Below, one piece after another: positions 7,124 to 63,373 of a stretch of 64,000 bases of DNA. A program made the position numbers and the translations under genes. This DNA comes from Emiliania huxleyi CCMP1516 (Eukaryota). Each line of letters starts with the position of its first letter. Position 1 is the first letter of the stretch. Below the pieces are notes generated by a model. It made no database searches. It had not been told where the DNA came from and worked only from the letters and a program-made list of their open reading frames with translations. The stretch covers positions 5,972 through 69,971 of the forward strand of contig NW_005201183.1 of assembly GCF_000372725.1 (NCBI RefSeq), given 5' to 3'.

Positions 7124-9456
7124 CGCACGGGCGACTGCGGGGCGCGGCGGAGGGCTTGCACAGGCGCGTGGGCGCGCGGCGCGCGCGCGCGGGCTCGCTA
7201 GCGGGGTGCGGTGGGCGAGGTGGTAGCGGAGTCGGGTATCACCGGAATGGAGGGTAGGATTCCTATCTGCCCATAGGGGTGGTTGAGGGGTTGAGGGTTG
7301 AGGCCCCCCCTCAACCATCTGGTTGACGGTTGAGACCCCCCGTCAACCCTTTAGTTGGGGGTTGAGGCCTCCAGGGCCTACTCTATTCACAGGCTCGCGC
7401 GTGATCACAACACACAAGATAAACTGGAACAGCCCCTGCCGCCAAAAAATCGCTTCGCCTGCGGCGCGCTCTTGCGCTCCTCGTACCTCGAGCGCAATCC
7501 ATAAGTAGGAGACGCTCACTGTCGCCATTCAGGCGCCTGATCTTTCAGCAAAGCGATGGCCTACCTGGTACGAGTTCAGATGCGCGCCCGGCAGAAGACG
7601 CGTGTGATGCCGCATGCAGTGGAATGCGCACAGAGAACGGACGGCAAGAGAAGGCAAGGGAAGGAAGAGAAACGGCTGGTGAAGCTCAGCTCACGGCGTA
7701 GTACTGCGTAAGCAACCGCGGTCACTAACCATCCACGGCAAGAGTCACGGGTGAATGCTGCCGCATAAAGCAACAGAGTCGCGCTTGGCGCGATGGTCTT
7801 GTCGCGGTTCACGACTTGACGTTGCACACGGTCATAGACGCAGGATCTATTTGGCGAGTCTCAAGCAGCAAAAGTAGGCGCGAGAAATTAATGTCGATCC
7901 TGAGATCTCAATTTTGGCGCTAGTTTCGTTTTCTGGTACATCACGACGACTTGCTTGGGTCTCATGTAGCTCGACGGCTCTTGGACGGCTCTTTCTGGTT
8001 GCTTGGATCAGACAGTGCTATCAGTCAGCAACGCAATGCCGAGAGCAGGGCGGCCTTCGAGGAGGGTCAACTAAGCTCCTGCTGCATATCGAGCATGGAA
8101 GGCGGCCATTGCTGATTGCTCAAACCTGTTCGAGTTGGCCTCCGGGAACAAGGGTGCGTGGCCGGCGCGGTCTGGTTCACGTGCAATGAGGGTAACGCCA
8201 TCAAAATCGCGATCATGGGCCGACATGCCTCCGACATTTCTCAAGGCCCGGACGGAAGCTCTGGCCTCTGCAGACAGCCAGACCGCTCTGCGCGGTCGGA
8301 CCGACTTTTTCAGACTTTACTATTCTGGATACTGAGGGTATGTGCTGCTAGATCTCACTGAGCTGAGCTCGTATCTGCCTTTTGCAAAAGAGTTTTGAGT
8401 TCGGTAATGTCTCCGGAGACGGAGGGCCGCGTCCGCGGACGGCCATGACTCGGCCGGGACCGCCCCGTGGGGGCCTTCGATGCACGATGGCTGTCAGCGC
8501 CATTCCGGGCTTTGCATCACACCTCCCATTCACGCACGGAGGTCGTAGCTGAAGCAAGTACTCGTAAAAACGGCGCGTCAAATGCAGCATCCAGGCGTCT
8601 AAAGAAGACGACATGAATCGTCTCACAGATAATGTGTGTTCAGACCTTTGCGCGGGGGGTGTGAACAGCCATTCCGCGTGGTTGAGGGGTTGAAGGGGTC
8701 TGTCAACCACTTGGTTGAGGGTTGAGGCCTCTGTCAACCACGTGGTTGACAGGTGAGAAGAGAGAGAGAGTCGTGATTTCTTGTTGGTTAATAAAAATCT
8801 CTCTCACAGGTGAGGCAATCGGCCTCAACCACCGCTATGAGTAGATTCCTAAGCCCGCTGACCGTGAGGCGGGAGCGAGGATCTCGGAGGCCCTTCCGAC
8901 CCCTCTCGAGCCCTCCCGCCACGAAGATCCTCCCTTTGTCCGACCGTCCCTCCGAGCCCACCCGGCGCCCGAGCCCTCTTGCCTATCACCCGAGCTCGGG
9001 GGGGGCGGCGAGCCCTCCTGGACCCCACCACCCCTCCCGCCTCGCCCAGCCCTCCTGACCCCTCTCCCCGGTGGACCGCTCCACCCTCCCAGCGCGCTAG
9101 CCCTATGGGACCCTGTGGAGCCCTCCCGACGCCGATCCGACGGGGACCCCTCCAGCCCTGTGGGCTGGCGAGCCCTCCGGTCGGAGGGGTGGAAGTGGGA
9201 GGGCTCGAGGACGGACCCCTCTCGCTCCGGGAGGGTGGAGGGGTGGAGGGTGGAGGGGTGGAGGGGTGGTTGAGCCCTCTAGCTCTATCGATATAGCCCT
9301 ACCCCTCCCGCCGTTTTAGGGCTTGCCCACCCGCTATGCTATCAGTTTGTACACCGCAAGAGAGTCAGCTGTTCCCACAGCAGGCTGGAAGTACCCGGGT
9401 ACCTCGCCAGCCTGAGGGACGCTTGGGAGGAGCGCCATCTTCTCTCGTTTCCCAAA

Positions 9457-10819: not shown

Positions 10820-13150
10820 ATGCCAGCGGCAAGCGGTCCGGACGCCGTCGCGAAGGTCCGGCGTAAGGCCGACGCGCCCATCACTGGCAAACACCGCACT
10901 GCGGCCACTAAGGGCAAACGCCGCAACGCCGAGTCTTCCACTGACGGCAAGCGCTGCAAGGCTGATGCGGGCTGCCGGGAACTCGCGGCTGGCGCTGCCG
11001 CCTCGTCTGCCGCTGCCTCCGCCTCGCCTGCCGCTGCCTCCGCCAGCTTTTCGTCCCTGCCCCTGCTGGCGACACTGCGGCTCGCCCTTTCCGAGTCGTT
11101 TCCGTTTGAGCAGCTGACTCCGGTGCAGCAGGCCACCATTCCGGCCGCCCTCGCCGGCCGCGACGTCATCGCGCGCGCGAGGACCGGGTCTGGTAAGACG
11201 CTCGCCTTTTTGCTGCCCGCGATCCAGCGGGTCGCGGCGGATCCAGACCAGCCTGGCGTGCGGGCTGTCCTGGTCTCCCCCACGCGCGAGCTAGCCACCC
11301 AGACCGGCGCCGTGTGCGAGGCGCTGCTCTCCCACATGCCCCGCGTGTCGTGCCGCTGCGCCGTGGGCGGGACGAGCGTGCACGGCGACGTCGCCGCCTT
11401 GCGCGGCTCACTCTGCCCCGGCATACTCGTCGGCACGCCTGGCCGGCTCAACGACCTGCTGTCGGGCGGGCACGGCGCGGCGTCCGCCTTCGGCCGCGTC
11501 GCCTGCCTCGTCCTCGACGAGGCGGACCAGCTCCTCGCCCTCGGCTTCCGCCGGCCGGTCGAGGCGGTCGTTGCCTCGCTCCGGAGGGCTGCCCACCCGG
11601 CGGCGCCTCCGTGGCAGACACTCCTCTTCTCAGCCACCCTGCGCGGAGACGTGCGCTCGCTCGCCGCCGCCGCGCGTCGCGGGTGCGCGCCGCCGACGGC
11701 GGCGGAGGACGACGACTTGCTCGTCGCCGACGCCATCGGAGCGGAAGCGCCGACCAACGCGGCGGTCGAGCAGGCCGTGACGGTCTCCCCGCCGGCGGCC
11801 CTCGCGGCGGAGCTGGTGCGGACCCTGCTGGCGCTGCGCTCGGACCCGGCCGCAAAGGTGATTGTCTACGCCGGCGCCGCGCGCCTCGTCTCCTTCCTCG
11901 CCGCGCTCTGCCGCCGGATGGGGCTCGGCGGCTCCGCGCCGCTCGAGCTGCACGCGCGGCTGCCTCACGCGGAGCGCGCGTCGGCGGACCGCCTTTCCTC
12001 GCGGCGGGAGGGGGGGGGGGGAGAGCAGCGTCTCTTCACACCGGGGTGTGCGCGTGAGCAGGTGGACGCCGCCTTCCGCGCGAGCGAGGGCGGGCGGCTC
12101 TTCCTAGAAGCACTTGGAGCGCTTGGAGTGCAGTGAAGCAGACTCCGTCTTCTTGTACCCCAACCCACACTCGAGAGGACACGGACTCAGCTGTATTCGA
12201 CTGTGTTCAGCCGTGTTCAGTCGTCTTCGCCTCCCTCGTAGTCACACGGTGCTCTGGATTCACTGCACAGCACCGTCTCCCCGCCCTGAGGCTGAGAGGA
12301 GAGAGGAGAGAAGGGAGAGGAGGGTGTGCTGATCTCGGCCGAGCTCGCGGTGATGGCGTATTCACCTCGCAGGCTCCTCTTCTCCTCGGACGTGTCTGCG
12401 CGAGGGCTCGACTACCTAGAAGCGGGGAACGTGTTCATGTATTCCAACTAGCGCCCGAGAGGACACGTATTCCGCCGCATTCAGCCGTATTCCGCTGTAT
12501 TCACTGTCTTCCTCCCCGTTGTCTTCACGCGGTGCTCTGAAGACGCTGCACAATGCCGTCTCCCCGCTGCACAATGCCGTCTCCCCGCCCTCATGCCGGC
12601 GTATGCACCACCACGCAGGCTTGACTACCACGACGTGACTGCCGTCGTCCAGCTCGGCGCCCCGCCCGACCGAGCGACGTACATCCACCGCGTGGGCCGC
12701 ACCGGACGCGCCGGCGCTGCGGGAGTCGGCCATCTGCTGCTGGCCGAGAGCGAGGCGTCCTTCCTGACTTGCTTGGGCGGGCTGCCGCTGACGCGAGCCC
12801 CGCCGCTGCCGCCCGCCGCCGCCGCGCTCCTCGAGCCGCGGCTGCGCGCGGCGCGCGGCGCGCTCCCCGCGAGCCTCGCCCAGGAGGCGTACGCCTCGCT
12901 GCTGGGGGTCTGCTCGGAGCCCGGCTGCTTGCGCCGGCTGCGCTGGAGCAAGGAGGACGCCGTGCGCCACACGAACGCCTTCGCCGCCGGCGTGCTCGGC
13001 CTCGCCACGCCGCCGCCGCTCGACGCCGCGGCGCTCCAGCGGATGGGCCTCGCCGGCGTGCGCGGCGTCGCGGCGAAGACAACGTCGCTCTCGTGCTTCT
13101 CGGTGGCGGGTAACGCGCCGCGCCACAAGGGGCGCTGCGACCTCGGCTGA
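10820..13150 (+). CDS. DEAD-box RNA helicase (Mss116/DDX18-like), 4 exons
   Basis: Q motif, ARTGSGKT, PTRELA, TPGRL, DEAD, SAT, ARGLD and HRVGRTGRAG. GC-AG introns 11984-12061, 12097-12372 and 12406-12618. Confidence 0.9.
12022..12061 (+). mobile_element. Degenerate copy of the 39-nt intron-forming core
   Basis: AGCAGCGTCTCTTCACAC...GCGTGAGCAG at the 3' end of helicase intron 1. Confidence 0.55.
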
Positions 13151-13824: not shown

Positions 13825-15726
13825 CTATGTAGAGCGCTCCTGGGCCGCATCCGCCGCCATCCTGGCTGCAACCGCCCTAGCCATCGACGCGACCGCAGCG
13901 GCACCCCTCGCCTCTGCAGCAGCACGCCTCGCGTCTGCAGCGGCCCTCGCCTCATCCAGCGCCGCCTCGGCCGCCGCCAGCGCCGCCTCGGCAGCCGCTA
14001 GCGCCGCCACGGCCACCACCTCCTCCGCCTTGTCCGCCTCTGCCTCCTCCTCCGCCTCGTCCGCCTCCGCGTCCAAGCGCACCGCCTCGGCCACCGCTGC
14101 CGACGCCGCTGCCTGGCTCTCCGCCGTGATGCCGAGCCGGATCCTCTCCTCGTGACACTTCTCGAGAAGCCTCATCATTTTCTCCTCCTCGGCCTTCTTT
14201 GCGGCCTCGGCTGCCTCCGACGGCGACTCGGACTCCTGCGACAGCCCAGCCGCGCCCGCTCCGCCGCCCTTCTTCTTCTTCTTGCCCTTCTTGCCCTTGG
14301 CGCGTTTCTCCGCCTCGACCTCCGCCAGCAGCTCGTCGGCGTGCCGCGCCGCCTCCTTCTCCTCCGCCGCCCTCTGCGCCGCCCTCTCCGCCGCCCCCGC
14401 AGCCCACGCCGCCTCATTCGCCGCCTTCTCGGCCGCCGCATGCTCCTCGAGGGCGCGCACGCACTCGGCGTGGCCCTGTTGCTTGGCGTACTGCAGCGCG
14501 GTTGTACCCTTCTCAGAGCGCAGCGTCATGTCTGCGCCCCCCCGCAGCAGCTGACGCACGACGGTGGGGTAGCCGAGCAAGGCGCCAAACATCAGCGCAG
14601 TGCCGCCGTTGGGGCCTTTCTGATCGACCTCCGCGCCGTGCCGCAATGCCAGCTCGACCAGCTTCTCGCGGCCGTTGGTGGCGGCGAGGCTCAGCGCGGA
14701 GCCACCATCGCTCTTCTGCAACGAGATATCTGCACCGCGCCGCAGAAGCGCCTCGGCCAGCTCCGCGTAGCCATAGACCATCGCAACCATCAGCAGCGTC
14801 ATGCCGCTCGCACACGAGCCGTCACCAAAGGTGTACTCGAACGTCGCGTCGACCCGCCCGCCGTCGTCGAGCCACGCCAGCACCGGCGTCTCGTCGCCTC
14901 GCTCAGCCGCTAGCACGACCTCCTTTGGCACTGCCTCGCTGCCCGGCGTGGCCCCCGCGCCCTCGCCGCTGGAAGCAGAGGCCGCAGCACTGGCGCCCGC
15001 CGCCGCCTCGCCTGCGGGTGCGCCGCCCGCCCCTGCGCCGCCCGCCTCGGCCGACAGCGCCTTGATCCGAGCTGCCGTCACCTCCCCGAGATACGTCCTG
15101 AAGGCCTCGTAGCACTCGGTGTGGCCCTTCTCCTTGGCAATCTGCAGCGCCGTCCTGCCGCCGCTAGAGCGCAGCGTCATGTCAGCGCCCGCCCGCAGCA
15201 CGCGAAGCACCACGGCGGGATGGTTGTGGATAGCGGCCCCCATCAGCGCGGTGCCGCCGAGACTGCTCTGCAGGTTGATCGCCGCACCGTGCCGGATCAG
15301 AGTGTCGACAATCCGCTCGTAGCCTTGGTAGGCGGCCTCCATCAGCGCAGTGACGCCAAGCTTGTTTTGCAGATTGACCTCCGCGCCGTGCCGCAATGCT
15401 AGCTCGACCATCTCCTCGCGGCCGTTCACGGCGGCGAGACCCAGCGCATAGTAGCTGCCGGCGCTGGCCAGCAATGAGACATCCGCACCGCGCCGCAGAA
15501 GCGCCTCGGCCAGCCCCGCGTGGCCATTGGACATTGCGACCATCAGCAGCGTCATGCCGCTCGCACACGAGCCGCCATCAAAGGTGTACTCGAACGTCTC
15601 GTCGACCCGCCCGCCGTCGTCGAGCCACGCCAGCACCGCTCCCGATTGGCCATCCTTGGCGGCCTTCCGAATGCTTGCAGGGACGTCGCCGCCGCCGCGC
15701 GTCGACGGAGGAGGCTGCGCGGACAT
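13825..15726 (-). CDS. Ankyrin-repeat protein (two tandem ANK modules, Lys patch, Ala/Glu coiled tail); paralogue 1
   Basis: Repeated GxTAL(M)xAAxxG...LLxxGADxxL motifs in an intact single ORF. Confidence 0.9.
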   Translation of the reverse strand: MSAQPPPSTRGGGDVPASIRKAAKDGQSGAVLAWLDDGGRVDETFEYTFDGGSCASGMTLLMVAMSNGHAGLAEALLRRGADVSLLASAGSYYALGLAAVNGREEMVELALRHGAEVNLQNKLGVTALMEAAYQGYERIVDTLIRHGAAINLQSSLGGTALMGAAIHNHPAVVLRVLRAGADMTLRSSGGRTALQIAKEKGHTECYEAFRTYLGEVTAARIKALSAEAGGAGAGGAPAGEAAAGASAAASASSGEGAGATPGSEAVPKEVVLAAERGDETPVLAWLDDGGRVDATFEYTFGDGSCASGMTLLMVAMVYGYAELAEALLRRGADISLQKSDGGSALSLAATNGREKLVELALRHGAEVDQKGPNGGTALMFGALLGYPTVVRQLLRGGADMTLRSEKGTTALQYAKQQGHAECVRALEEHAAAEKAANEAAWAAGAAERAAQRAAEEKEAARHADELLAEVEAEKRAKGKKGKKKKKGGGAGAAGLSQESESPSEAAEAAKKAEEEKMMRLLEKCHEERIRLGITAESQAAASAAVAEAVRLDAEADEAEEEAEADKAEEVVAVAALAAAEAALAAAEAALDEARAAADARRAAAEARGAAAVASMARAVAARMAADAAQERST

Positions 15727-17484
15727 ACACGTGCACTAGCTGGGTTCCGGCTCCTACCCGGAGGGGTAGTCTCGGAGCGACTGACTCGCGCCAAAACGCC
15801 CTACCTACCGGAACCCTGAGTGGCTCGCTAAACGCTCGCCGAGCCAGGTTATGCAACGAACACACATCTGCGCACACGTGCAAGGGTGTCTAGCCTTAAT
15901 AAAGTGGCGCTCACACTCTCTCCGCCTCTTGTGGATCGAACTGGACAGTGCTCAGTGGACTCGCGAGCTCGCATGTCCGCGCGTGTCGTTCCCGACGGAT
16001 TCGCGCGGTGGGTGGCGTCGATAGCCAAAGAGCTTATCGCGCAGCCGATCGAAGAGCCTGTTCTGATCGGCTCGCGAGCCCTGGAGCTCGCAGCCATCGC
16101 CATGGTCGCGAAACCATCGCGCTGGGCGGCGCGGCGGGTGGGGCGGCAGCGGGGCACCAGGAGATGGTGCCGTGGGCAGCGCTGCGGGGAAGGGAGGAAG
16201 GGGCGGAGAGAGGGAGGAGGGGGGGGCGGCTCGCCTGCCGCCCTCGAGCCGCGACAGCCGGTGCCGTGGCCGGCCCGCCTTCGAACGTGAAGGGGGGACG
16301 GCCTCATGCCGCCTCACCGCGCGACGCGGCGGCCGGCCGCCACCTCAAAGGAGGCCTCTCGCGCTCGAAATACGTGCGAGGCACCTGCCGAAGGGGGTGG
16401 GGTGGTCGGGCGGTCTAGGGGAAGGCGTCTCCGGTGGGTGGGCGCCGCTCCTACAGCGCGCGGGGCGGGGAGGCCGACTGCGGCGGTGATACGGTCGCGC
16501 GCGCGGGGCGTGGAGGGCCAGGGAGGTGGAATCCGGGCCGGCGGAACCTTCCGATTTTTGACGTGATTAACTAGCCCGAGGCTGGCCGGAGAGGATTGAG
16601 ACCTGCGATTCTTGTTTTTCCGCTGCTCGAGCCGGCCAGCCGTGCCTACGGCGAGAAAAGGAGCGTCCGACCCGGTCCGATCTCGCGCTCCAGCGGGAAC
16701 GCCGAGCGCCTCGGACGCCAAGCGGAAACGGCGTTCGGAGGCGGGGCGCGGTGGCGATCACCGGTCGGCGCCTTCGCGGCCGGCCGGCCCGGTGGGTCGC
16801 CACGGCACATGCGCCGCGCGCCGTCGCCAGGCCCCGCCGCCGCCCCGCCAGAGCAGCGGCGAGATGGGAGGCGGTCGGCGGGTGACATCGGCTCTTCGAG
16901 CGAGCTTTCAGCTCACTTTGACGACGCTAGGAAAATCAATTCGTGGAATCCAGTTCGAGATGCAGTGAGGCGGAGCCTACCCTGCCCCGCCCTTGTGAGG
17001 CAGGAAAGTGACGACTACCCCGTACGCCCGGTTGCATCATACCCCATCGCCGACCGCCCATTCCCCCCTCCTCGTCCCCCCCCTGTTTTTTTTGGATTTT
17101 CTTTTTCTGGTTGGGAAAAACTGGCCGGACCGGATTTTGGGGCGGATGACGAGAGCACGAGACGCGTCGCCTCGCTTTGGGGTGGCTGATGAGGGGCGCC
17201 GTCCCGATTTGGTCCACACTCTGTCACTTACCCCTTGCAAGAAAACGAGAACACCTGATCAAAGACTCAACGACAAACGCGTGAAAGCTGGCAAGCGTGC
17301 GTTGGCCGTTGGCGTTGCCCATTTTACACCCCGCAGGGCAAGCATCAAGCAAGCGAGCAGCCGCCTTTTTGGGGCAGCATCCAAGCCAGCGCGGCGGCAG
17401 AGCCAACAACAGTCGTGGCGGCCCTCCGCTTAACGCCAGTGGGAACGACCATCTTTTGATTTGTACGTACCCCCTCCTCTCCCC

Positions 17485-19783: not shown

Positions 19784-20451
19784 ACGCGGCCACACGCGCT
19801 GGCGCGCACGGCAACCGGGACTTACACGCGCGACACGAGGGACTGCGTATCCTCGCCTGCCTCGGGGGAGAATAGCCGCCCTCACCCGCTGCCGCGCATC
19901 GAGCTCGGCGCGGGGCTGATACGTGTCATTCTGTGCCGGCGCGTATCTTAGCCAAGATACGCGGCCACACGTGCAGACGCGTATAGCGGTACTCGCGCCC
20001 ACACGTGCAGCCGCCTATCTTGGCCAACATAGGCGGGCGTGAGCGCGTGAAACGGCCTGTTGGCGAAGGCGACTCGCGCTGGCACGTGCACAGAGGGATG
20101 TTCACATACGCGGCTACACGTGTGGGCGCCTATCTAGGGGAACACACGCGCCCCATGCGTGGGCGTGTATGTCACGCGGTACGCGGCTGCGAGTGCAGCC
20201 GCCTATGTTGGCCAAGATAGGCGGCTGCACGTGTGGGCGCGAGTACCGCTATACGCGTCTGCACGTGTGGCCGCGTATCTTGGCTAAGATACGCGCCGGC
20301 ACAGAATGACACGTATCAGCCCCGCGCCGAGCTCGATGCGCGGCAGCGGGTGAGGGCGGCTATTCTCCCCCGAGGCAGGCGAGGATACACAGTCCCTCGT
20401 GTCGCGCGTGTAAGTCCCGGTTGCCGTGCGCGCCAGCGCGTGTGGCCGCGT
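19784..20451. mobile_element. Foldback/MITE-like element with 253-bp inverted arms
   Basis: 19784-20036 is the reverse complement of 20199-20451 (about one mismatch seen), with a 162-bp spacer and internal palindromes. Confidence 0.8.
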
Positions 20452-32363: not shown

Positions 32364-32505
32364 TACCGGCGATTACCGTGGGTGGTGCCCTGCACTCATC
32401 TCGTGTAGCAGCAAGGTCGCTATGGGTGTCGCTTTACCGGCGATTACCGTGGGTGGTGCCCTGCCCTCATCTCGTGTAGCAGCAAGGTCGCTATGGGTGT
32501 CGCTT
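32364..32505. repeat. 71-bp tandem duplication
   Basis: 32364-32434 and 32435-32505 differ by one base. Confidence 0.9.
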
Positions 32506-34152: not shown

Positions 34153-37100
34153 ATGGCAGCGAGCGGGCAGCCGCGCAAGCTGCAGGAGCAGGTGGCGCAT
34201 GGCGGCCCCGTTCGGTGCGTGCACATCGGCCGCAAGTCCGGCGGCGTGATGGTGACGGGTGGCGACGACAAGAAGGTGAACCTCTGGTCGGTCGGCCGCC
34301 CCAACGCGATCCTGTCCCTCGCGGGCCACACCAGCAGCGTCGAGTCGGTCTCCTTCGACTGTTCGGAGCGGACCGTCGTCGCCGGCTCGGCCGGCGGCAC
34401 TCTGAAGATGTGGGACCTCGAGCACGGCCGCGTGGCGCGCACGCTCACCGGCCACCGCTCGAGCGCCATCACGGTCGAGTGGCATCCGTACGGAGAGTTC
34501 TTCGCGTCGGGCTCGGCAGACACGTACCTCAAGGTGTGGGACATGCGCCAGCGCGCGTGCATCCAGACGTACCGGGGCCACGCCGGCGCCGTGCGCAACC
34601 TCCTCTTCTCTCCCGACGGCCGGTGGGTGGTCTCTGGCTGCGACGGAGGCGAGGTCAGGCTGTGGGACCTGACCGCGGGCAAGCTGCTGACGGAGCTCTG
34701 CACGCACGCGGGCGCCGTGTCCGCTCTCGCGATCCACCCGACCGAGTTCCTTATGGCGACCGCCGCCGCCGACCGCACCGTCCGCCTCTGGGACCTGGAG
34801 ACGTTTTCGCCGGTCGGGGCGGCGCTGCCCGAGCCCGGCGGAGGGTCGCGGCGGGTCGCCTTCACGCCAGACGGGAGCGCGCTGCTCTCGGCGGGCGAGG
34901 AGTCGCTGCGCGGGTGGGGGTGGGAGCCCGCCCGCTGCCATCTCCACTCCGAGACACGCTGGTCGCGGCTGTCCGACTTTTGCATCGTCGGGGGCGGCGG
35001 GGGCGGAGGAGGGGAGCGGGAGGGAGGAGAGGGGGAGGTGCTGGCTGCGGCCCTCCACGAGTGCGTGGTCACCGTGTGGGGAGTCCGCCTCGACGAGCTG
35101 CGCGGGCTCGGCCACCCTCCGCCCGCCGGCGCGGCTCGACTCGAGGGCGGGGGGAGGCGCGAGGGCGCGAGGCACGAGGGCGGAGCCAACCACCTCGCCT
35201 CCGCCTCCTCCCGCCCCGCCTCCGCCTCCTCCCGCCCCGCCTCCGCCTCCTCCCGCCCCGCCTCCGCCTCCTCCCGCCCTGTCCCCGCCGCTCGCAAGGC
35301 GGCCCCCGCTCCCGCCGCCCCTCCCGCCGCCGCTCCCGCCCCTGCCGCTCCCGCCCCTGCCGCATCCGCCCCTGCCGGCCCCGACACTGCTGGCCTTGAC
35401 GAGGGCGACGAGCTGTCGGTGTCCGCCTGCGCGCGTATGCAGATCGCCGGCTGCCGCGCCCAGATCGCCGCCGTCCGGCGCGGAAGGTCCGCCTGCCACG
35501 GCGCTGCAGCTGTCTCTGGCGCCGCCGCCGCCGCCACAGCGGCTTGCTTGAGGCCGGCGGACTTCGCCGCCGCCGACGTCCCCGCCGCCTCTCTGGCGGA
35601 GGGGGGCGGCGCTCGCGAGGCTGGCCGCGGGGGAGGCGGCTGCAGGGCCGCGTGCGCGGAGCAGTCGGAGCCGCTCGCCACCGCAGGAGGACGGCACAAG
35701 TCGGTCGGCACGTCGATGGGAGACTCTCTCTGCGGCGGCCTCGCGCCGGCGGCTTCCTAGACACTTCCTAGACGCCTCCTAGACACCTCCTAGACACCTC
35801 CTAGACACTCCCTCGCCTCCTCCCACGAAGAGTGACGCGCCTCTCGCGCGCGCGCCACCCCGGCGCCGGCCCCCCTACTGACGCACTCCCGCTTCCGCTG
35901 CCGCGCCGAGCGAGAAGCTCCTGTGGTGTGAACAGCGTCTCTCCACACGTACTGCTGTGAACAGGCGACTGCCGCGTCGAGCGAGAACCTCCTGGGGAAT
36001 GCGCAGCTCCCTCCGCCGCGATACCCCGCGACGCGCGCGCGCAAGGCGGCGTCGGCCGCACCGGCGCCCGCGCCCGCGGCGGCTGGCTGTGGCGAGGGCG
36101 GGGCGGCGGGCGGCTGCGGCGGGGCGCGGGTCGGCGAGGCGCGCGGGCTCGAGGAGGCGCGCGGGCTCGAGGAGGCGCGCGGGCTTGACCCGTCCGAGGC
36201 GCGCGGGCTCGACCCGTCCGCATTCCTGCCGCGGGCAGGGGGCGGCCCTGTGCCCCGAGACGAGGAGGCGCTGCTGTCGGCGCTGCTCGCCCCGTCGCCG
36301 CTGCAGGTCTCTTGCCTCTCGGCGCGGCTGACGGCGCTGAGGGCTCTCGGCTGCTACCACGCGGCGGGCGACTTCAAGGCGACGCTGCAGCCTCCTCGGT
36401 TGGGCGGAGGGGGGGGGGGGGGATTGGGCTCCTTCTCTGACCCTTCCTGCGGCCCTTGCCGCCAGGCGATGCTGCAGCACCTCGCGCGGCTGGGGGATGC
36501 GTCCGTCACGGTGGACGTGTTGCGCACGGGCACGTTGCGCCGCGTCCCGCTAGACCTGGAAGGGGCGCTGCTGCTGCTGCCCACGCTCACTCAGCTCCTC
36601 GCCTCCTCCCACGAAGAGTGACGCTTCCTAGACACTTCCTGGACACCTCCTAGACACCTCCTAGACACCTTCTAGACACCTCCTAGACACCTCCTAGACG
36701 CCTCCTAGACACCTCCTAGACACCTCCTAGACACTCCCTCGCCTCCTCCCACGAAGAGTGACGCTTCCTAGACACCTCCTAGACACCTCCTAGACACCTC
36801 CTAGACGCCTCCTAGACACCTCCTAGACACCTCCTAGACACTCCCTCGCCTCCTCCCACGAAAAGTGACGCGCCTCTCGCGCGCGCGCCACCCCGGCGCC
36901 GGCCCCCCTACTGACGCACTCCCGCAACACGTAGGCACGCCGAGGCGTCGCTCGACGCGCTCTCGCTGGTCCTCTCAAGCTTTGGGTCGGTGGTGGCCGC
37001 GGCAAGGTCGGCGGCGACTGGCGGCGTCGGCGTTGATCTGAGCGGCGAGGCGCGCGCGCGCCGGTGCCACGAGTGCTACGACCACTTCGACGCGATCCGA

Positions 37101-44517: not shown

Positions 44518-46818
44518 TCATCTCCGGCAGAGCGCCGCCGCAGGGGCGGTCGGCAGCGCCAGGTGGCTCCGCACAGCATACGCGCTGACTGCGCGCATGA
44601 CTCTATCGTTATGGTCCGCCGCCATGGCTGCTCCTCGGCGCCTCCCGCCGCCGGACGGGTCGGCTTCCGAGCCTGCGCGCCGCTCGACGGCGTCGCGGTT
44701 CGCGCCTGGCGATGCAGGGGTGCTACGTCGGAAGGGAAGGGGCGGAGTGCGGCGGAGGAGGCCCGCACCGCGGCGACGCTCGAGCTCGCGCCGGGCTGCC
44801 GCCTCCTCGCGCGTGCCGGCTGTCCCTCGCGGGAGCCGCGCCTCCGCCGCCTCCGCCGCGCGCGGCGCCTCCTCCGGTGCGCGAGGAAGCTTTGCCGGCG
44901 CCCCTTCTGCAGGGCCCGACCCGGCCGCCGCCGCCGCCGCCTCCCGCCCGCCCTCCGCCCAGCGCTGGAGGGCCGCCTCGGCGGCATCTACCCACGCGGG
45001 CCCGCGACCGCCCTGCTCCGCGCCGCCTCCCGCCACCGCCTCCCCGCCCCACCGGCCGGCCAAGCCCGCCGTGGCGAGCAGCCGGCGAAGCGCCTAAACG
45101 TGTCAGCAAGAGCTCGCGTCTGATGACCTAGGGTTAGGCTTAGGGTTAGGGTGAGGGTTAGGCTTAGGGTTAGGGTTAGGGTTAGGGTTAGGGTTAGGGT
45201 TAGGGTTAGGGTTAGGGTTAGGGTTAGGGTTAGGGTTAGGGTTAGGGTTAGGGTTAGGCTTAGGCTTAGGGTTAGGGTTAGGGTTAGGGTTAGGGTTAGG
45301 GTTAGGGTTAGGGTTAGGGTTAGGGTTAGGGTTAGGCTTAGGGTTAGGGTTAGGGTTAGGGTTAGGGTTAGGGTTAGGGTTAGGCCTAGGGTTAGGGTTA
45401 GGCTTAGGGTTAGGGTTAGGGTTAGCAAGCGCCTAGCAGTTAAAGCAAGAGCTCGCTTCTGAGGCCCACGGCCCACGAGCGACAGCAGCCGGCGAGAGGC
45501 GCCTCGGTCGCTCGGTCGGCGCTAGGCGGGAGATATGGGGAGATATGGGGAGATATGGGGAGATATGAGGCGCCTCGGTCGCTCGGTCGGCGCGTGCTGC
45601 TTCCTCCACCGCCTCGAGGCTGGCCGCCTCGAGCCTCCTCCGCAGCGCGAGCACCTGCAGGGCGGGAGCAGGGTGGGAAGGGCGGGGATGCGGGAGCAGG
45701 GCGGGAAGGGCGGGGATGCGGGAGCAGGGCGGGAGGGGCGGGGATGCGGGGCAGGGCGGGAAGGGCCGCCGGCAAGCGGCGCGAGGCAAACGCGCCTCCG
45801 CGGAAGCCGCGGCGGCGGCGGCCGACGCCTCCTCTGCCGCCTCCTCCGCCGCGCCCGCCCGCCGGAGCAGCGCCGCCTCGTCGACTGCGCCGCAGGCTGC
45901 CGCCGCCGCGCCGCCGGGGCCCGCTCCGGGGGCTCCAGACTCACCGCCGCCGCCGCCGCCGCCGCCTCCCTCGCTCCCGCCCCCGCCAGTGTCGGACGGC
46001 CCATCGCGTCGCTCGAGCGCGGCGGGCAGGAGAGAGCCGCCGCCCGCACGCTCCGGCGCGGTCGACTGCGGCGCGGCCGGCTGCAGCGCCAGGGACTGCA
46101 GCGCCGCCTCGGCACGAAGCGAGCGCGACTCGGCGGCGTCCGCCTGTTCACAGCAGTGGGTGTGAAGAGACGCCGTTCACACCCCTAAACTCTGCGCGAC
46201 TCGGCGGCGTCCGCCCTCGCCGTCGCCTCTGCCGCCGCCGCACGCGCCTCCGCCACCTGCTCCGCCGCCTCCGCCACCGCCTCGGCCGCCGCCTCCGCCC
46301 GCCGCCTCCCCTCGGCCGCCTCCAGCCTCGCCGCCGCCGCCGCCGCCTCCGCCTCCTGCCGCTCCGCCTCCGCCTCGATGCGGCCGCGCCGCGCCTCCGC
46401 CACCCACGCGGCGCAGGCGGCGGCCGAGGCAAGGCCCTGCTGCGCCGCCTCGAAGGGATGGAGGTCCGGGGCCGGGTCGGGGATGCGCATTCCCGAAGCC
46501 CCGCACGGGGCGAAGGAGGCGGAGGCCGAGGCAAAGACGGTGTCGTCGGCGCGCCGCCGGCTGCTCCCCCGCGGAGAGCGGCGTGCCGCGCCCGCCTCGA
46601 GCGCTGCACCGCCCGCCGCTGCAGCCGCAGCTGCCGTCTCGAAGCGCGCCCGCGCCGCCGCCTCTGCCGCCGAGTGCCGGAGGACCGACGCGGCGGCGGC
46701 TTCGAGGCGAGCGCGCGCCTCTACCTGGCACCGCTGGTTCTGACGGTCGCATATGTCGTAGCCATGCGAGGCCGTCGGCGGCGGCAGCGGCGGCGGCGGT
46801 GGAGCTCGTGGCGGTGGT

Positions 46819-54663: not shown

Positions 54664-55487
54664 GGCACTGCGCCTCGCGCCTTGCGCTGCTGGAAGGAAG
54701 CTCTCGGTAGCTGCCTAGGCGTCCGGAGTGGAGCCGTCGAGAGCGCGGCCATTGATCCGAGACACTTCCTGTGAAGGCCGGCTTGTGGAAGCAGCACCAC
54801 ACCTGTGCATCCGACACCGTACATGCACATGTACATGTGACTGCGAGACAGAGGGGAGGGCTCGTAGCGAGCGGGCCGCCAGCAGCAACACGGCGCGGGC
54901 GGCCAAGCTCTTTTCACAGCGCGAAGTGTGAACAGCTCCACGAATATATAATGTCCCAGGCATAGTTGTACGGGTTTGGAATTGCGCAGGAAGTGGAGCT
55001 GTGAAGCTGTCCACACTGGTCCACACCAACCCATTCAGGGGAAGCCCAAGTGCAACTCTTCTTTACTTGAGCACTTGAGCACTGGATAGGGTCAATTCCG
55101 CATGGTACGGGACCCCTCGATCGTCTCGCCCTCCCTCTCTGGCGTGTTCATTGGGGGGGGTCATAACAAACACGGTACAGGATCGAGGTGCACGCTGCTG
55201 AAGCAGTGTCGTCCCCCCTCTCCCCGACGGCGATGGCGGTGTGACCGATCGATCTTCTTTACTACAAACTAGCCAAAAACCACGGTGTCCCCTCTCCCCC
55301 ATTCTCTACGGGCAGCCATTAGTCGGCCCCCGGGCCGCTGCAGTCCACCTCCCTCTCTCGCAGCCGCCGCCACCGCCGCATCCGCCTCGTCTCTCTCTCC
55401 CCTCGCTCGACCGCGTCGAATTCATTGGGGAGCGCTTTCTTCCCAAGGGTGGCCGGAGAGACGCCTGAAGGCCTCTGCCCGCTTCCG

Positions 55488-55929: not shown

Positions 55930-58021
55930 TCACGGCGCGGCCGCTGCCTCATTCGCCTCTCCTGCCGCCGTCTCCGTCGCCTCTCCGGACGCCTCGTCCA
56001 CGACGGCGCCGCTTCGCAGCAGGTAGAAGGCGCAAGTGCGCTCGCACAGGTCCGCCACGCGTGAGGCGGCGGAGAAGCCGTCGGGCGGCGGCGCGTCGCC
56101 GCAGCCGTCCGCCCACGAGACGGCGCACACCGCGTAGCCGGACGTGTCGACCACGTCGCGGCAAGGCGTGCCGCACACCTCCGCTGCTCGGTCCTCGAGG
56201 CCGGCCTCGACGCGCGCGAGTGCCGCCGCCTGCCGCCTCACGTCCTCCACCGCCGCGCGCACCTTCTCGCTGTTCGGCGCCATCCGCTGCGCCGACTCGA
56301 AGTCTGCGAGGGCCTCGGAGAGGCGGCCTTGCTGCGTGCGCGCGGTGGCGATGCCCTGCTTCGCCTCGTCAAAGTACTCCGAGTTTGCGAGCGCGCCCTG
56401 GTAGAAGAGGTCGATCGCCTCGGCAGGTCTCGACTGGCGAGCGCTCAGCCGGCCGAGGGAGAGGAACGGCCGCGCGTCGGTCGGTGCAGCCGCAGAGGCG
56501 CGTCGGAAGGCGAGCTCCGCCGCGGCCTCGTCGCCGGTCGAGAGGCGCGCCTCGCCCAAGTTGAGCCACGGCAGCGCCTCGGACGGCCGCAGCTCCGCCG
56601 CGTGCTCGTAGGCGTCCGCCTCCTCGCCGAACCGCTCCAGGTCAGCGAGTGCGGCGGCGAGGTTCACCCACGCGTCGAAGTCGCGCGGCACGAGGCGCAA
56701 CGCGGCCTGGTACGCCTGCACCGCCTCGGCCGTGCGGCCCTGCGGAGGGGCGGCGCCGAGCGAGAGGTGGGGAGAGGTGGGGAGAGGTGGGGAGAGGTGG
56801 GGAGAGGTGGGGAAAGGTGGGGAGATACGGGGAGATACGGGGAGATACGGGGAGATATGGGGAGATACGGGGAGATATGGACCTGCGCGCGGAGAGCGAC
56901 GCCGAGCGAGAAGTGGGCGTCCGAGTCGAGCGGCAGCAGCGCCGTCTGCGCCTTGAGCTCCTCCTCCGCCTCTGCAGGCCGGTCGAGGCGCAGCAGCGCG
57001 TCGGCGCGGTTGGCGTGGCAGAGGGAGCAGTGCGGGTTGAGGCGCAGCCCCTGCGCAAACAGCCGGTCCGCCTGCTCGAGCTCGGGGGCAGTCGGCGACG
57101 GGGCGAGCAGCAGCCGGTTGCCACGCTCGTTGAGCCGCCTCACGTGCTCGACTCTGTCTGCGAGCGCGATGAAGCCGCCGAGGACGTACCGGAGGCCGGA
57201 GGAGACAGCGTGGCCCGCATGCCGCACGGCGCCGGGCCGGAAAGTGACCATGCCCTGCTCCATCGGCAGCACCTGTTCACAGCTGGACGTGTGAAGAGAC
57301 GCTGTTCACACCTGACCATGCCCTGCCCCATCGGCAGCACCGCCCGCAGGCTCTCGAAGTACGTCCCTCCCCCCTCGAACGAGGAGGAGGGCGAGAGCGC
57401 CACCGTAAAGGCGAGTAGCGCGTCGTCGATGTGGACGTCGGTCGCGGGGTGCGACTCGTTGTACTTGAGGATGGCGACCGAGTGCGCGCGCAGCTGCGCG
57501 GTCGAAGAGACGTGCGCCGGGAAGAGCTGCGCCAGCGCCGGGTACAGCTTCGTCTCGAGCGCGCCGTTGAACCAGCTCAGCACACCCGGCATCTCCCTCA
57601 CCCAGGCCTTGCCAATGCGGTACTTGCCCGACTTTGTGCTCGGAAGGCCGCCCCCCTCCGCCTCGGCCAGCGCCACCACCTCGTCGCACTCGGCCGCCGA
57701 GAAGAGCGGCGCCTCCGTCACGTAGATGGAGTGCTCCTCCTCGCCGGCGCCCTCGACGATGTCGACCAGCGGGCCGTGGCCGAGCGGGTGGCGGCTCATC
57801 TGGGGCAGAGCCACCTCCGCCGCCGCATCGCCGCAGAAGAAGTGCCGGCACGCCTCGGCAGACTCGCGGTTGTGGTCCACCTCGTTCGCAGAGAGGGCGT
57901 CAGAGAGGGCGGCGTCGGGCGCCTCGGAGCAGCTCGCGCCGCCTGGGTCGACGCAGACGCGCTCGGCAGCCACGGCCGCGGCCAGCAGCGCGACGCCCAT
58001 GACGAGACTGGGATGGCTCAT
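55930..58021 (-). CDS. Secreted 2OG-Fe(II) oxygenase (prolyl/lysyl-hydroxylase-like) + TPR repeats + Cys-rich tail, 3 exons
   Basis: Signal peptide; HIDD...FEGGGTYF...HAG...RYVLGGF; TPRs. Introns 57273-57340 and 56740-56882. Confidence 0.85.
56762..56880. repeat. Intronic 10-bp minisatellite (GGGGAGAGGT then GGGGAGATAY)
   Basis: Directly visible. The GGGGAGATAY unit also occurs at 27104-27135 and 45527-45566. Confidence 0.9.
57273..57311 (-). mobile_element. 39-nt intron-forming core
   Basis: Sense GTGTGAACAGCGTCTCTTCACACGTCCAGCTGTGAACAG, flanked by 29-nt direct repeats 57245-57273 and 57313-57341 (one mismatch). Confidence 0.8.
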
Positions 58022-58582: not shown

Positions 58583-60577
58583 CTAGGCCGCCTCCCGCGC
58601 CCTGGCCCTCGCAGCGGCAACTGACGCGCGCCTCGCCTTGGCTGCGGCGAGCGCCGCCTCTGCCGCCGCTACTGCCGCCTCGGCCGCCTCGGCCGCCTCC
58701 TCCGCCTCTGCGGCAGCCTCCTCCTCCTCTGCGGCCGCCACGGCCGCAGCCTCCGCCTCAGCCTGCCGGCGCGCCTCCGCTGCCGCCTCCTCGCCCTCCT
58801 CCTCGCCCGCCTCCTCGCCCTCCTCCTCGCCCTCCTCCTCGGCCGCCTCCGCCGTCTCCTCGTCACCCTCCTCCTCGCCCGCCTCGCCCGCCGCCTCTCC
58901 CAGCGCCTCCGCCAATCCCGCGACCGACGTCTCCGGCGTGATGCCGAACCGGATCCTGTCCTCGTGGAGCTCCGCGAGAAGCTGGAGCAGCCCCTCCCTG
59001 TCCAACGGCGCGGGCTTGGCTGCCGCTGCCTCCGCCGGCGCCTCGGACTCCTGCGACGGCCCAGCCCCGCCGCTCCCGCCGCCCTTCTTCTTCTTCTTGC
59101 CCTTCTTGCCCTTGGCGCGCTTCTCCGCCTCGACCTCCGCCAGCAGCTCCTCGGCGTGCCGCGCCGCCTCCTTCTCCGCCGCAGCCCGCTCCGCCTCCCT
59201 CTCCGCCGCCCCAGCAGCCCACGCCGCCTCCTTCGCCGCCTTCTCGGCCGCCGCCTTGGCCGCCGCATGCTCCTCGAGGGCGCGCACGCACTCGGCGTGG
59301 CCCTTCTCCTTGGCGTACTGCAGCGCGGTCTTGCCCTTCTCAGAGCGCAGCGTCATGTCAGCGCCCGCCCGCAGCAGGCAGAGAAGGGCGGCGGGATGGC
59401 CGTTGTGAGCGGCGAGCATCAGAGCGGTGTCGCCGTTGTTGTCCTGCAAGTCGATCTGCGCGCCGTGCCGCAACGCCAGCTCGACCAGCTTCTCGCGGCC
59501 GTTCGCGGCGGCAAGGCTCAGCACGGTGCCACCGTCGCTCTTCTGCAACGAGACATCTGCACCGCGCCGCAGAAGCGCCTCGGCCAGCTCCTCGTGGCCA
59601 TGGGCCATTGCGACCATCAGCAGCGTCATGCCGCTCACACGAGAGCCGCAACCGAAGGTGTACTCGAACGTCGCGTCGACCCACCCGCCGCCGTCGAGCC
59701 ACGCCAGCACCGGCGCCTCGTCGTCTCGCACAGCCGCAAGCACGACCTCCGTTGGCACTGCCTCGCTGCCCGGCGTGGCCCCCGCGCCCTCGCCGCTCGA
59801 AGCAGAGGCCGCGGCACTGGCTCCCGCCTCCGCCTCGCCTGCGGGTGCGCCGCCTGCCCCTGCGCCGCCCGCCTCGGCCGACGGCGCCTTGCTCCGAGCT
59901 GCCGCCACCTCACCGAGATACGTCCTGACGGCCTCGCCGCACTCGGTGTGGCCCTCCTCCTTGGCAATCTGCAGCGCCGTCCTGCCCGCCGCAGTGCGCA
60001 GCGCCATGTCTGCGCCCGCGCGCAGCAGGCGGAGCACGACGGCAGGGCGGCCGAAAAAGGCGGCGCCCGTGAGCGCAGTACCGCCGAGATTGCACTGCAG
60101 GTTGATCCCTGCGCCGTGCCGCAGCAGCATCTCGGCCACGCGCTCGTGGCCTTTGGCGGCGGCGGCCATCAGCGCGGTGACGCCGTGCTTGCGGTCCTGC
60201 AGATTCATCCGTGCGCCGTGCCGCAGCAGCATCTCGACCACCTGCACGTAGCCCGAGAGGGCGGCGACCATCAGCGCCGTAATGCCCTCGCTGTTTTGCG
60301 CGTCCGCCTCCGCGCCCCGCTTCAGCAGCAGTTCGACCTTCTCTTTGTGACCGCATTCGGCGGCGATCAGCAGGAGCGTCCAGGCATGCACCCCGCCACG
60401 CACGCACGTCGCATCAACCCGCCCAGCCCCGCTGAGCCACAGCTGCACCTCGTCGACCTTGCCGTCCTGAGCCGCCCTTGCAATCCTCTTCGGCAGCGCG
60501 AGCGGCGCAGAAGTAGCCGCCGTTGAAGCGTGCCCGCGCCGGGACGCGGCCGAGCCAGCCTTCGTTCGGCCGAGCAT
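58583..60577 (-). CDS. Ankyrin-repeat protein; paralogue 2
   Basis: Intact 664-aa ORF with ANK repeats, the same linker and a similar tail to paralogue 1. Confidence 0.9.
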   Translation of the reverse strand: MLGRTKAGSAASRRGHASTAATSAPLALPKRIARAAQDGKVDEVQLWLSGAGRVDATCVRGGVHAWTLLLIAAECGHKEKVELLLKRGAEADAQNSEGITALMVAALSGYVQVVEMLLRHGARMNLQDRKHGVTALMAAAAKGHERVAEMLLRHGAGINLQCNLGGTALTGAAFFGRPAVVLRLLRAGADMALRTAAGRTALQIAKEEGHTECGEAVRTYLGEVAAARSKAPSAEAGGAGAGGAPAGEAEAGASAAASASSGEGAGATPGSEAVPTEVVLAAVRDDEAPVLAWLDGGGWVDATFEYTFGCGSRVSGMTLLMVAMAHGHEELAEALLRRGADVSLQKSDGGTVLSLAAANGREKLVELALRHGAQIDLQDNNGDTALMLAAHNGHPAALLCLLRAGADMTLRSEKGKTALQYAKEKGHAECVRALEEHAAAKAAAEKAAKEAAWAAGAAEREAERAAAEKEAARHAEELLAEVEAEKRAKGKKGKKKKKGGGSGGAGPSQESEAPAEAAAAKPAPLDREGLLQLLAELHEDRIRFGITPETSVAGLAEALGEAAGEAGEEEGDEETAEAAEEEGEEEGEEAGEEEGEEAAAEARRQAEAEAAAVAAAEEEEAAAEAEEAAEAAEAAVAAAEAALAAAKARRASVAAARARAREAA

Positions 60578-61266: not shown

Positions 61267-63373
61267 CTAGGCCGCCTCCCGCGCCCTGGCCCTCGCAGCG
61301 GCAACTGACGCGCGCCTCGCCTTGGCTGCGGCGAGCGCCGCCTCTGCCGCCGCCGCCGCCGCTGCCGCCTCTGCCGCCGCCGCCTCTGCCGCCGCTACTG
61401 CCGCCTCGGCCGCCTATGCCGCCTCCTCCTCCGCCTCAGCCTGCCGGCGCGCCTCCGCTGCCGCCTCCGCTGCCGCCTCCTCGCCCTCCTCCTCACCCTC
61501 CTCCTCGCCCTCCTCCTCCTCGGCCGCCTCCTCGGCCGCCTCCGCCGTCTCCTCCTCGCCCTCCTCCTGGCTCGCCTCGCCCGCCGCCTCGGTCTCTCCC
61601 AGCGCCTCCGCCAACCCCTCGACCGACGTCTCCGGCGTGATGCCGAACCGGATCCTGTCCTCGTGGAGCTCCGCGAGAAGCCGGAGCAGCCCCTCCCTGT
61701 CCAACGGCGCGGGCTTGGCTGCCGCTGCCTCTGCCGGCGCCTCTGACTCCTGCGACGGCCTAGCCCCGCCGCTCCCGCCGCCCTTCTTCTTCTTCTTGCC
61801 CTTCTTGCCCTTGGCGCGCTTCTCCGCTTCGACCTCCGCCAGCAGCTCCTTGGCATGCCGCGCCGCCTCCTTCTCCGCCGCCGCCCACGCCGCCGCCCTC
61901 TCCGCCGCCCCCGCAGCCCACGCCGCCTCCTTCGCCGCCTTCTCGGCCGCCGCCTTGGCCGCCGCATGCTCCTCGAGGGCGCGCACGCACTCGGCGTGGC
62001 CCTTCTCCTTGGCCCACCGCAGCGCGGTTGTACCCTTCTCAGAGCGCAGCGTCATGTCTGCGCCCGCCCGCAGCAGGCGGAGCACCACGGCGGGATGGCC
62101 GTTGGCAGCGGCGAACATCAGCGCGGTGCCGCCCTCGATGTTCTGCAGGTTGATCGCCGCACCGCCGGATCAGAGTGTCGACAATCCGCTCGTAGCCATA
62201 TTGGGCGGCCTCCGTCAGCGCAGTGTTGCCACTTTCGTTTCCCTGATCGACCTCCGCGCCGTGCCGCAATGCCAGCTCGACCAGCTTCTCGTAGCCGTTC
62301 ACAGCGGCGAGACCCAGCGCATAGCTGCGGCCGGCGCTGGTCAGCAATGAGACATCCGCGCCGCGCCGCAGAAGCGCCTCGGCCAGCCCTGCGTGGCCAT
62401 CGACCATTGCGAGCATCAGCAGCGTCATGCCGCTCGCACGAGAGCCGTCAACAAAGGTGCACTCGAACGTCGCGTCCACCCGCCCGCCGCCGTCGAGCCA
62501 CGCCAGCACCGCCGCCTCTTCGCCTCGCTCAGCCGCGTCCACGACCTCCTTTGGCACTGCCTCGCTGCCCGGCTCGGCCTTTGCGCCCTCGCCGCCCGAA
62601 GCAGAGGCCGCGGCACTGGCGCCCGCCGCCGCCTCGCGTGTGGGTGCGCCGCCCGCCCCTGCGCCACCCGCCTCGGCCGATGGCGCCTTGCTGCGCGCCG
62701 CCGCCACCTCGCCGAGATACGTCCTGAAAGCCTCGACGCACTCGGCGTGGCCCTTCTCCTTGGCAATCTGCAGCGCTGTCTCACCGTCCATGTCGCGCAG
62801 CTTCATGTCTGCGCCCGCCCGCAGCAAGCGGAGCACCATGGCGGGATGGCCGTAGAGGGCGGCCAGCATCAGCGCGGTGCCGCCGTTGTTGGCCTGCATG
62901 TTGATCTCTGCGCCGTGCCGCAGCAGCATCTCGGCCACCTGCTCGTGGCCGTTGGCGGCGGCCATCATCAGCGCGGTGATGCCTGCGCTGTCCTGCAGGT
63001 GGATCCCTGCGCCGTGCCGCAGCAGCATCTCGGCCACCTGCTCGTGCCCGTGGGCGGCGGCGGCCATCAGCGCCGTATCGCCTTCGCTGTCTCGCGCGTC
63101 CGCCTCCGCGCCGCGCTTCAGCAGTAGTTCGATAATCTCTCTGTGACCGTGTTCGGCGGCGATTAGCAGGAGCGTACAGCCACTCACACCGCGATGCACG
63201 CACGTCGCGTCAGCCCGCCCAGCCCCGCTGAGCCACAGCTGCACCTCGTCGACCTTGCCCTTCTCCGCCGCCGCCTCGATCCTTTTCGGCAGCGTGAGCG
63301 CCGCAGCAGTAGCCGCCGTTGAAGCGTGCCCGCGCCGGGACGCGGCCGAGCCAGCCTTCGTCGGGCCGGGCAT
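61267..63373 (-). pseudogene. Ankyrin-repeat paralogue 3, disrupted
   Basis: 2-nt deletion near 62165 (ATCCGG[CA]CGGTGCG relative to paralogue 1) and an in-frame TAG at 61414-61416. The 3' flank duplicates that of paralogue 2. Confidence 0.75.

Follow-up and report, generated by a model that had tools for sequence, protein, structure and literature searches.

Results

The window analyzed here is a 64,000-nt stretch of Emiliania huxleyi CCMP1516 DNA in which an oxygenase-TPR gene and a coiled-coil gene on the minus strand, and the katanin p80 and DEAD-box helicase genes on the plus strand, contain related intronic sequence. The shared core is 39 nt long and lies in the oxygenase-TPR gene at 57273-57311; it comprises a weak 7-bp hairpin, a branch-point-like TTCAC (the branch-point consensus being yUnAy), and a tail ending with the acceptor AG. 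Both this copy and those that a preliminary description had placed in katanin p80 (35926-35964, 36/39 identical) and the coiled-coil gene (46144-46182, 34/39 identical) are confirmed, the best core match across 30 simulated windows being 22-25/39. The helicase copy it had also named is less clear: the ungapped match of 23/39 falls inside this null range, but a 16-nt exact piece at 12026-12041 and a profile score of E 9.7e-5, versus a best null E of 1.2, speak for it. All four gene copies are indeed in sense orientation and end in GAACAG or GAGCAG. Two partial core-like motifs, at 54909-54935 and 8659-8669 in apparently non-coding DNA, are weak (E 0.024 and 3.4, respectively).

In the oxygenase-TPR gene, contigs of runs X1, X10, and X13, which come from three studies, skip exactly positions 57273-57340 (68 nt, CT..AC), a minus-strand GT-AG intron made up of a duplication and the core. 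X10 and X13 are RNA on record and X1 is RNA by our guess, and contigs of the DNA run X4 contain the insertion. The reading frames of the gene join only after removal of these 68 nt. Splicing takes place at the very junction, 57273/57340, that had been predicted. The intronic copy of the 29-nt duplication (57312-57340) begins with the GT donor and matches the exonic copy (57244-57272) at 27/29 positions; RNA joints place the latter in the mRNA, and its region shows no indel relative to 11 other haptophyte-type orthologs. Removal of the unit is thus exactly scar-free in this gene. The 39-nt core as an intron on its own (57273-57311) is ruled out, because the RNA skips 68 nt and unit lengths in the wider family are uniform modulo 3. 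Intron 2 (56740-56882, minus strand, 143 nt, GT-AG), supported by an RNA joint in X1, X10, and X13, consists of a 10-mer array and, after it, a duplicate of the end of the upstream exon, from which the AG comes; this is the mirror layout of the core introns with a different insert.

The katanin p80 intron at 35749-35964 (plus strand, GC-AG) is skipped as exactly 216 nt in one RNA run, X10, again at the predicted junction. It contains a duplication, a nested block, and the core, and the duplication is ~33-38 nt long, with an indel and the 139-nt nested block. Exon start and intronic copy differ by this indel, and the scar-free removal that had been described does not hold here as it does for the oxygenase-TPR gene. 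The nested block (35752-35891, plus strand) is bounded by a 6-nt repeat and matches 36788-36925, part of a later katanin intron, at 136/138 positions; in the window, a 138-nt block of the later intron has thus been copied into the first one. Other alleles are without the block (a joint in X4 skips 139 nt, and it is missing from L006, a sampled locus that is an allele of the window's katanin gene), and the intron there measures 77 nt. The window's own nested-block junction occurs in none of the contigs listed, and the block may be a mis-assembly of the window. A further plus-strand GC-AG intron of 87 nt (36379-36465), with a joint in X9 and X10, starts with a decayed copy of the next exon's start, and all four joint-supported introns of the oxygenase and katanin genes show a duplication remnant. 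The katanin intron at 36600-36925 consists of tandem units of exon-end copy plus 11-mer array, part of which recurs in intron 35749-35964.

Other introns of the window are predicted from sequence and, for the next two, reading frame. The coiled-coil gene is predicted to contain a 71-nt GC-AG intron (46144-46214, minus strand) built of a 21-nt duplication (46194-46214), 11 nt of unrelated filler (46183-46193), and the core. The helicase gene is predicted to contain a 78-nt GC-AG intron (11984-12061, plus strand) with a degenerate duplication and a 5'-truncated core (12026-12061); since its length is a multiple of three and it is free of stops, retention is also possible. The 20-29-nt copy of the exon start reported upstream of each core is accordingly found in the oxygenase-TPR (29 nt) and coiled-coil (21 nt) genes, but not in katanin, where it is longer and interrupted, or in the helicase, where it is degenerate. 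Two predicted minus-strand GC-AG introns have other inserts: 27-nt duplication plus 10-mer array at 45503-45573 (71 nt), and duplication plus AT-rich filler at 2944-3016 (73 nt). A pure tandem duplication of 71 nt, 98% identical and insert-free, lies at 32364-32505; an obvious splice-site pair for its scar-free removal is lacking, and it was set aside. The window also contains a perfect 253-nt inverted repeat (19784-20036 and 20199-20451, with a 162-nt spacer).

Scanning metagenome contigs (57 of 64 parts) with an exact 23-nt hairpin pattern that is blind to the 3' end gave 121 loci in 113 distinct contexts; exact-pattern scans of viral contigs and genome contigs gave 0 matches. All family counts are of sampled metagenome loci rather than genome-wide, and the sample is biased by the exact seed and by assemblies that favor genes. 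One locus, L072, shares 99% identity with the E. huxleyi protein EMIHUDRAFT_201303. By pattern, 86 of 111 seeds are sense copies with a tail ending AG|GT, AG|GC, or AG|GA. Three more have an inverted loop and a full tail, five look like inverted inserts that still end AG|GY, four lie in a longer repeat, two are too short, and 11 are unclassified; inspection by eye gave three more repeat copies, about five more sense copies, and one inverted copy. In L004, L020, and L024, the hairpin loop has the opposite orientation to the tail, a form that template switching at an inverted repeat would produce. Summed X4 contig depth over the core is 17,622 in its bin versus about 10-13 in unique exon, a figure that is not a copy number; there is a hint here of a core present at very many loci.

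A first count of 197 ends included 93 false ends of the palindrome read on the opposite strand, leaving 104 copies with the end pattern CAG/TAG; the katanin/L006 variant escapes this pattern. These 104 copies are followed by GC in 53, GT in 41, GA in 5, and other dinucleotides in 5, with GT/GC expected by chance in 18%. The duplications of L028, L059, L090, L101, and L111 start with GA, implying GA-AG introns; one GA donor has been verified in E. huxleyi, according to the available part of PMC4028052. A clear duplication accompanies 71 of the 104 copies (mismatched-pair null 1.2%) and 33 are without one. In these 71, unit length is 61-84 nt (median 69; 23/23/25 by remainder modulo 3), and the target at the duplication start reads G|G[CT]G. 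Matched duplication length is 16-45 nt (median 26). A codon model that called 12 of 14 held-out exon windows correctly places 83 of 99 copies in sense orientation, which bears out the sense bias suggested by the four genes. Removal of the whole unit restores the frame in 50/63 cases and in 30/31 of the confident ones; Pfam matches, to varied families, lie on at least one side of 15 of 43 junctions, and the two-sided matches are contiguous in 4/4. About 92 kb of flank yielded 21 further core copies without the seed pattern, neighboring core pairs lie on one strand in 24/24 cases, and tandem duplication-plus-core arrays occur, one site having 1 unit in L029 and 3 units in L118.

Together these data uphold the view that the core is a multi-copy family that forms real introns, with the acceptor carried in the core and the donor taken from a long duplication; as also noted earlier, it has no terminal inverted repeats, unlike short-duplication introners. 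The constant part of the core is the branch-point-like TTCAC plus the acceptor. Of the GTGTGAA...TTCACAC hairpin in the preliminary description, the weak 7-bp stem exists, but it is broken in the katanin copy and no core copy folds better than its own shuffles (z -1.14 to +0.07); with the 5' arm intact in only 9/21 unseeded copies, the hairpin is not needed, and we reject it as an unproven functional structure.

Junction sequences give clues to the template. Intronic and exonic duplication copies are about 95% identical over the first 18 nt and about 45-55% identical next to the core, which is preceded by at least 5 unrelated nt in 29/66. Shared upstream bases track core subtype (3739 pairs among 87 copies; permutation p 0.0005), and 8/3739 pairs share at least 8 upstream nt versus 0 in the control; L032/L116 have 16 nt in common and L010/L035 13 nt. 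The filler matches another locus's own duplication in L010, L032, and L061, that of L061 being the end of L105's own duplication. On the 3' side, general exon-start sharing past the AG is not significant (p 0.81); an exon start of 11-12 nt is common to L029/L118, L038, and L121, and in L121 three codons of the exon have in this way been exchanged for synonymous ones, different from those retained in the intronic copy. Copies thus have flank bases in common on the 5' side and occasionally on the 3' side, so that the template must extend beyond both the core and the excised intron. There are also 3'-truncated core copies joined at microhomology, 5' truncation in 12/21 unseeded copies by a crude test, and inverted inserts with full duplications (L008, 37/37; L068, 36/36; L109, 36/38). 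Neighboring pairs have identical tails in 3/24 cases versus 2.7% (p 0.026, for pairs that are not independent), so that local copying is weakly supported.

A search for spaced direct repeats with any insert showed that the layout extends beyond the core. Core-free spaced direct repeats give the same 65-79-nt peak, and the 112 duplication units of the sampled loci hold the core in 57 and other inserts in 55 (9 AT-rich, 2 telomeric, and 44 other, mostly 10/11-mer arrays). The duplication-plus-insert layout is therefore common to the core, 10/11-mer arrays, AT-rich fillers, and telomere repeats, which is new. Among the 91 units of 64-80 nt, 89 could be removed by GT/GC/GA-AG splicing without a scar (chance 41-69%), including 35/36 that are core-free, as against 6/14 below 64 nt and 4/7 above 80 nt. 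Longer duplications go with shorter inserts (rho -0.77). We interpret the floor near 64 nt as the effect of a minimum intron size on a process whose products vary more widely in length. In L029 (4-95) and L106 (157-270), telomere-type repeats lie between direct repeats of 23 and 30 nt; these units measure 67 and 79 nt, respectively, and are predicted to splice without a scar.

Empty alleles were sought at individual sites. No empty allele of a core-bearing intron was seen at nine twice-covered sites in the loci, nor in DNA run X4 at the oxygenase and katanin sites, and none of the nine sites shows the same duplication with different inserts between alleles. Orthologous oxygenase proteins from 37- and 53-kb contigs (P0026, P0030) read through the intron site; no orthologous oxygenase DNA was found among the viral contigs searched. 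At the L072 site, two relatives (P0054, P0059) read through and break off later, and a third (P0060) breaks off exactly there and may have an intron at that site. These protein, rather than DNA, comparisons suggest that read-through relatives have no intron at the orthologous oxygenase and L072 sites.

A tandem and dispersed repeat of ~356 bp contains the same hairpin without duplication or acceptor. Its units carry alternating GTGAA/TTCAC motifs, with two hairpin-like copies each; it is tandem in L005, L089, and L103 and partial in L030, L042, L045, L055, and L094, and seven non-intron core copies lie within it (L005, L030, L042, L045, L055, L094, and L103). One repeat copy folds well (z -3.5). 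An Rfam search of the seven non-intron loci gave 0 matches, and Pfam searches of 49 ORFs in flanks of up to 700 nt detected an HRDC domain and a low-complexity match, with no reverse transcriptase or transposase domain. We consider this repeat a likely source of the core.

Discussion

The introns described here are real spliceosomal introns, composed of a ~30-nt duplication of host exon and a ~39-nt insert that carries the acceptor, with splicing observed at two loci. We propose, with a probability of roughly one half, that they arise by host templated fill-in at a short gap or staggered break, in which microhomology switches synthesis onto an existing copy and back, followed by selection for spliceable units. 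Synthesis would fill in the target segment and then jump, at microhomology, to the AG|G[CT]G junction of a donor, which could be genomic DNA or unspliced pre-mRNA. The donor (core plus a few flank bases) would then be copied, the strand would re-anneal about 20-35 nt away, and the target segment would be copied a second time. The AG|G[CT]G end of the donors would favor targets whose first bases can serve as a splice donor. Selection would retain exonic products only when the unit is at least ~64 nt and spliceable. Each new intron would be a possible template, so that the core could spread without a transposase of its own, and the core itself was probably derived from the ~356-bp repeat. Direct repeats around filler from another locus, with microhomology at the junctions, are what is observed here and what defines templated insertion at repaired breaks.

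The apparent inverted inserts (5/111) and the inverted loops (3) are as expected of a double-stranded template. Sense copies with an acceptor dominate, and apart from the seven copies in the 356-bp repeat very few lack an acceptor. Neutral copies are thus scarcer than untargeted repair predicts, since many intergenic or antisense intronic copies would be expected, and a link to transcription or splicing must be added to the fill-in model. A hypothetical transcription-coupled gap of about 30 nt in the template strand would fit both the size and the exon bias. Nucleotide excision repair leaves a gap of about 30 nt.

It is also possible, though we think it unlikely, that the introns are made by target-primed reverse transcription, with a retroelement- or telomerase-like enzyme nicking the strands 20-35 nt apart and copying an excised intron or unspliced pre-mRNA from its 3' end. 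The variable long duplications, the 5' truncation of 12/21 unseeded copies in the crude test, the nearly fixed AG end, and the telomere-type inserts in 2/112 units would all suit such an enzyme, and the reads found across 478 of 535 inspected E. huxleyi introns in the available part of PMC4028052 indicate a supply of templates. Our data nevertheless show neither a poly(A) nor a simple-repeat tail; carry-over beyond the AG (L038, L121) and 3'-truncated, microhomology-joined copies exclude a fixed excised-intron end; the loop-inverted forms fit DNA better; and the 49 ORFs within 700 nt of the seven non-intron copies encode no reverse transcriptase domain. The family accordingly shares variable duplications and 5' truncation with non-LTR elements and SINEs, but not a fixed 3' end with a poly(A) or simple-repeat tail. 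The preliminary description had suggested a mechanism such as target-primed reverse transcription or break repair templated by a small RNA. A fixed small-RNA template is not supported, as copies carry flank bases of other copies and Rfam has no match near the non-intron copies.

Less probable still is a two-step origin, in which introns are born as a duplication plus any filler and the core, as a good branch point and acceptor, later overwrites the 3' part by ectopic gene conversion. Such conversion would explain why cores occur almost only at working acceptors, the in-register fillers, and the 33/104 copies without a clear duplication, but the inverted inserts with near-perfect duplications (L008, L068, L109) look like one-step products and no pair of alleles at the nine sites differs in the insert within a shared duplication. 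A non-autonomous DNA transposon or Helitron-like element, that is, a classical introner whose transposase recognizes the GTGAA/TTCAC motifs of the 356-bp repeat, is very improbable: the motif recurs there in alternating orientation, one copy folds well (z -3.5), and most typed introners are DNA elements in the available part of PMC9860276, but the duplications span 16-45 nt against the 3-9 bp cited there, there is no fixed 5' end and no terminal inverted repeat, Helitrons leave no duplication (PMC12130899, available part), and unrelated inserts have the same layout.

Returning to templated fill-in, that shared layout suggests a wider proposal, which we hold slightly more tentatively than the mechanism itself: the bloom-forming alga E. 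huxleyi may build many, perhaps most, of its introns by one host pathway in which ~30 bases of transcribed exon are duplicated and the middle is filled with any template. Products above the minimum size would become introns and then templates, giving self-propagating families without a transposase or fixed element ends. The recurrence of the layout with unrelated inserts makes host DNA repair, rather than a classical jumping gene, a likely maker of new introns.

Introners with co-opted splice sites and 3-9-bp duplications are established (PMC9860276, PMC12130899, and bioRxiv 10.1101/2020.10.14.339549, as far as their available text goes). Like them, the core introns are multi-copy, carry their acceptor, take a GT, GC, or GA donor from the duplicated target, and usually leave mRNA length unchanged. 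Similar introns occur in many unrelated genes (113 contexts; 15/43 junctions with Pfam matches) and are spliced out with coding restored (RNA joints at 2/2 loci tested, frame in 50/63, 4/4 domains contiguous). Unlike introners, they have variable duplications of 16-45 nt, no terminal inverted repeats, a ragged 5' end, and flank carry-over, and only the 3' ~39 of ~70 nt is common between introns, whereas PMC9860276 requires similarity over roughly the whole intron. In place of the fixed 3-9-bp duplication and terminal inverted repeats at fixed ends of MITE-type elements, there is an internal 7-bp stem; 71/104 copies have a long duplication, which Helitrons do not make; and the whole-intron copying without duplication of fungal introner-like elements, for which reverse splicing has been proposed, is not seen. 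The core introns thus fail the defining features of the DNA-transposon, Helitron, SINE, and fungal types and appear to be one output of a broader duplicate-and-fill process.

Part of this family may already have been catalogued. Emiliania is absent from the main texts of both PNAS papers (PMC9860276, PMC12130899), and their supplements list families of unknown mechanism. That of PMC9860276 gives 653 introner copies for E. huxleyi CCMP1516 in five families of mean length 70, 70, 37, 37, and 37 with TSD '?' or 'N'; that of PMC12130899 lists E. huxleyi fam4 (45 copies, gt-ag, splice positions 113/150, 4-nt TSD, 'co-opt both') and fam24 ('10bp terminal direct repeats'). Judged by lengths and descriptions rather than sequence, these families may include our core: 70 and 37 correspond to the true unit and to the core from its second GT, and the identical 8-mers at the two ends of the core would look like a 4-nt TSD. 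Unlike the core introns, the listed families are labeled as LTR or unknown and are given no long duplication. At L072, the one locus where a public gene model was checked, the junction is correct, contrary to the idea that such models call a 37-nt intron. A 14-nt motif occurs in no paper text searched, nor in the searched supplements of PMC12130899, PMC9860276 (part), and PMC4839659 (part), and the available portions of PMC10290126, PMC7486954, PMC13334186, PMC6157073, and PMC11282704 contain nothing on long-duplication introns; the mutation-accumulation data of PMC7486954 leave indels out. In the literature searched, we found no description of introns with long duplications, or of a ~70-nt unit common to them, in Emiliania. 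The 2013 E. huxleyi genome paper reportedly mentions 10-11-bp intronic repeats.

Closer precedents come from repair. The available part of PMC3296678 describes introns of Daphnia, Aspergillus, and Drosophila gained when double-strand breaks were repaired with filler DNA flanked by direct repeats, and that of PMC7407515 describes templated insertions of alternative end joining. The introns studied here resemble these gains in having direct repeats around filler copied from elsewhere, junction microhomology, and no element-encoded enzyme; they differ from such scattered single events in that one insert recurs at >100 sampled loci, the repeats are long, unit size is narrow, and products can give rise to additional copies. 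Tandem genomic duplication is also named as a source of introns in the accessible text of PMC3296678. There, too, a duplicated exon segment gives a splice site and splicing restores the coding sequence, but here a foreign insert of ~40 nt contributes the other splice site and the branch point, so that the duplication can be far shorter than the intron.

The origin of spliceosomal introns at genome scale is a long-standing question, for which transposon-type introners with short duplications are the bulk sources on record, repair-born gains being known as scattered cases. The length of the footprint found here allows target, donor, and switch points to be read for each event. If general, the pathway would be a bulk, enzyme-independent source of introns that tends to escape current introner screens, which require whole-intron similarity and filter low-complexity families. 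A general pathway of this kind would also help to explain the GC-donor excess of E. huxleyi, given as 56-65% in the available part of PMC4028052.

The telomere-type inserts have a parallel of their own. Interstitial telomeric repeats are inserted at repaired breaks, and in 2/112 units telomere-type inserts likewise lie between direct repeats; unlike typical interstitial repeats, they share the size class of the other inserts, and splicing is predicted for them. Within the window, an internal array of ~50 TAGGGT telomere-type repeats (45129-45425) adjoins the coiled-coil gene. Three paralogous blocks (14349-15761, 59176-60282, and 61875-63078), 76-92% alike over 300-nt stretches, contain internal repeats of ~100 nt.
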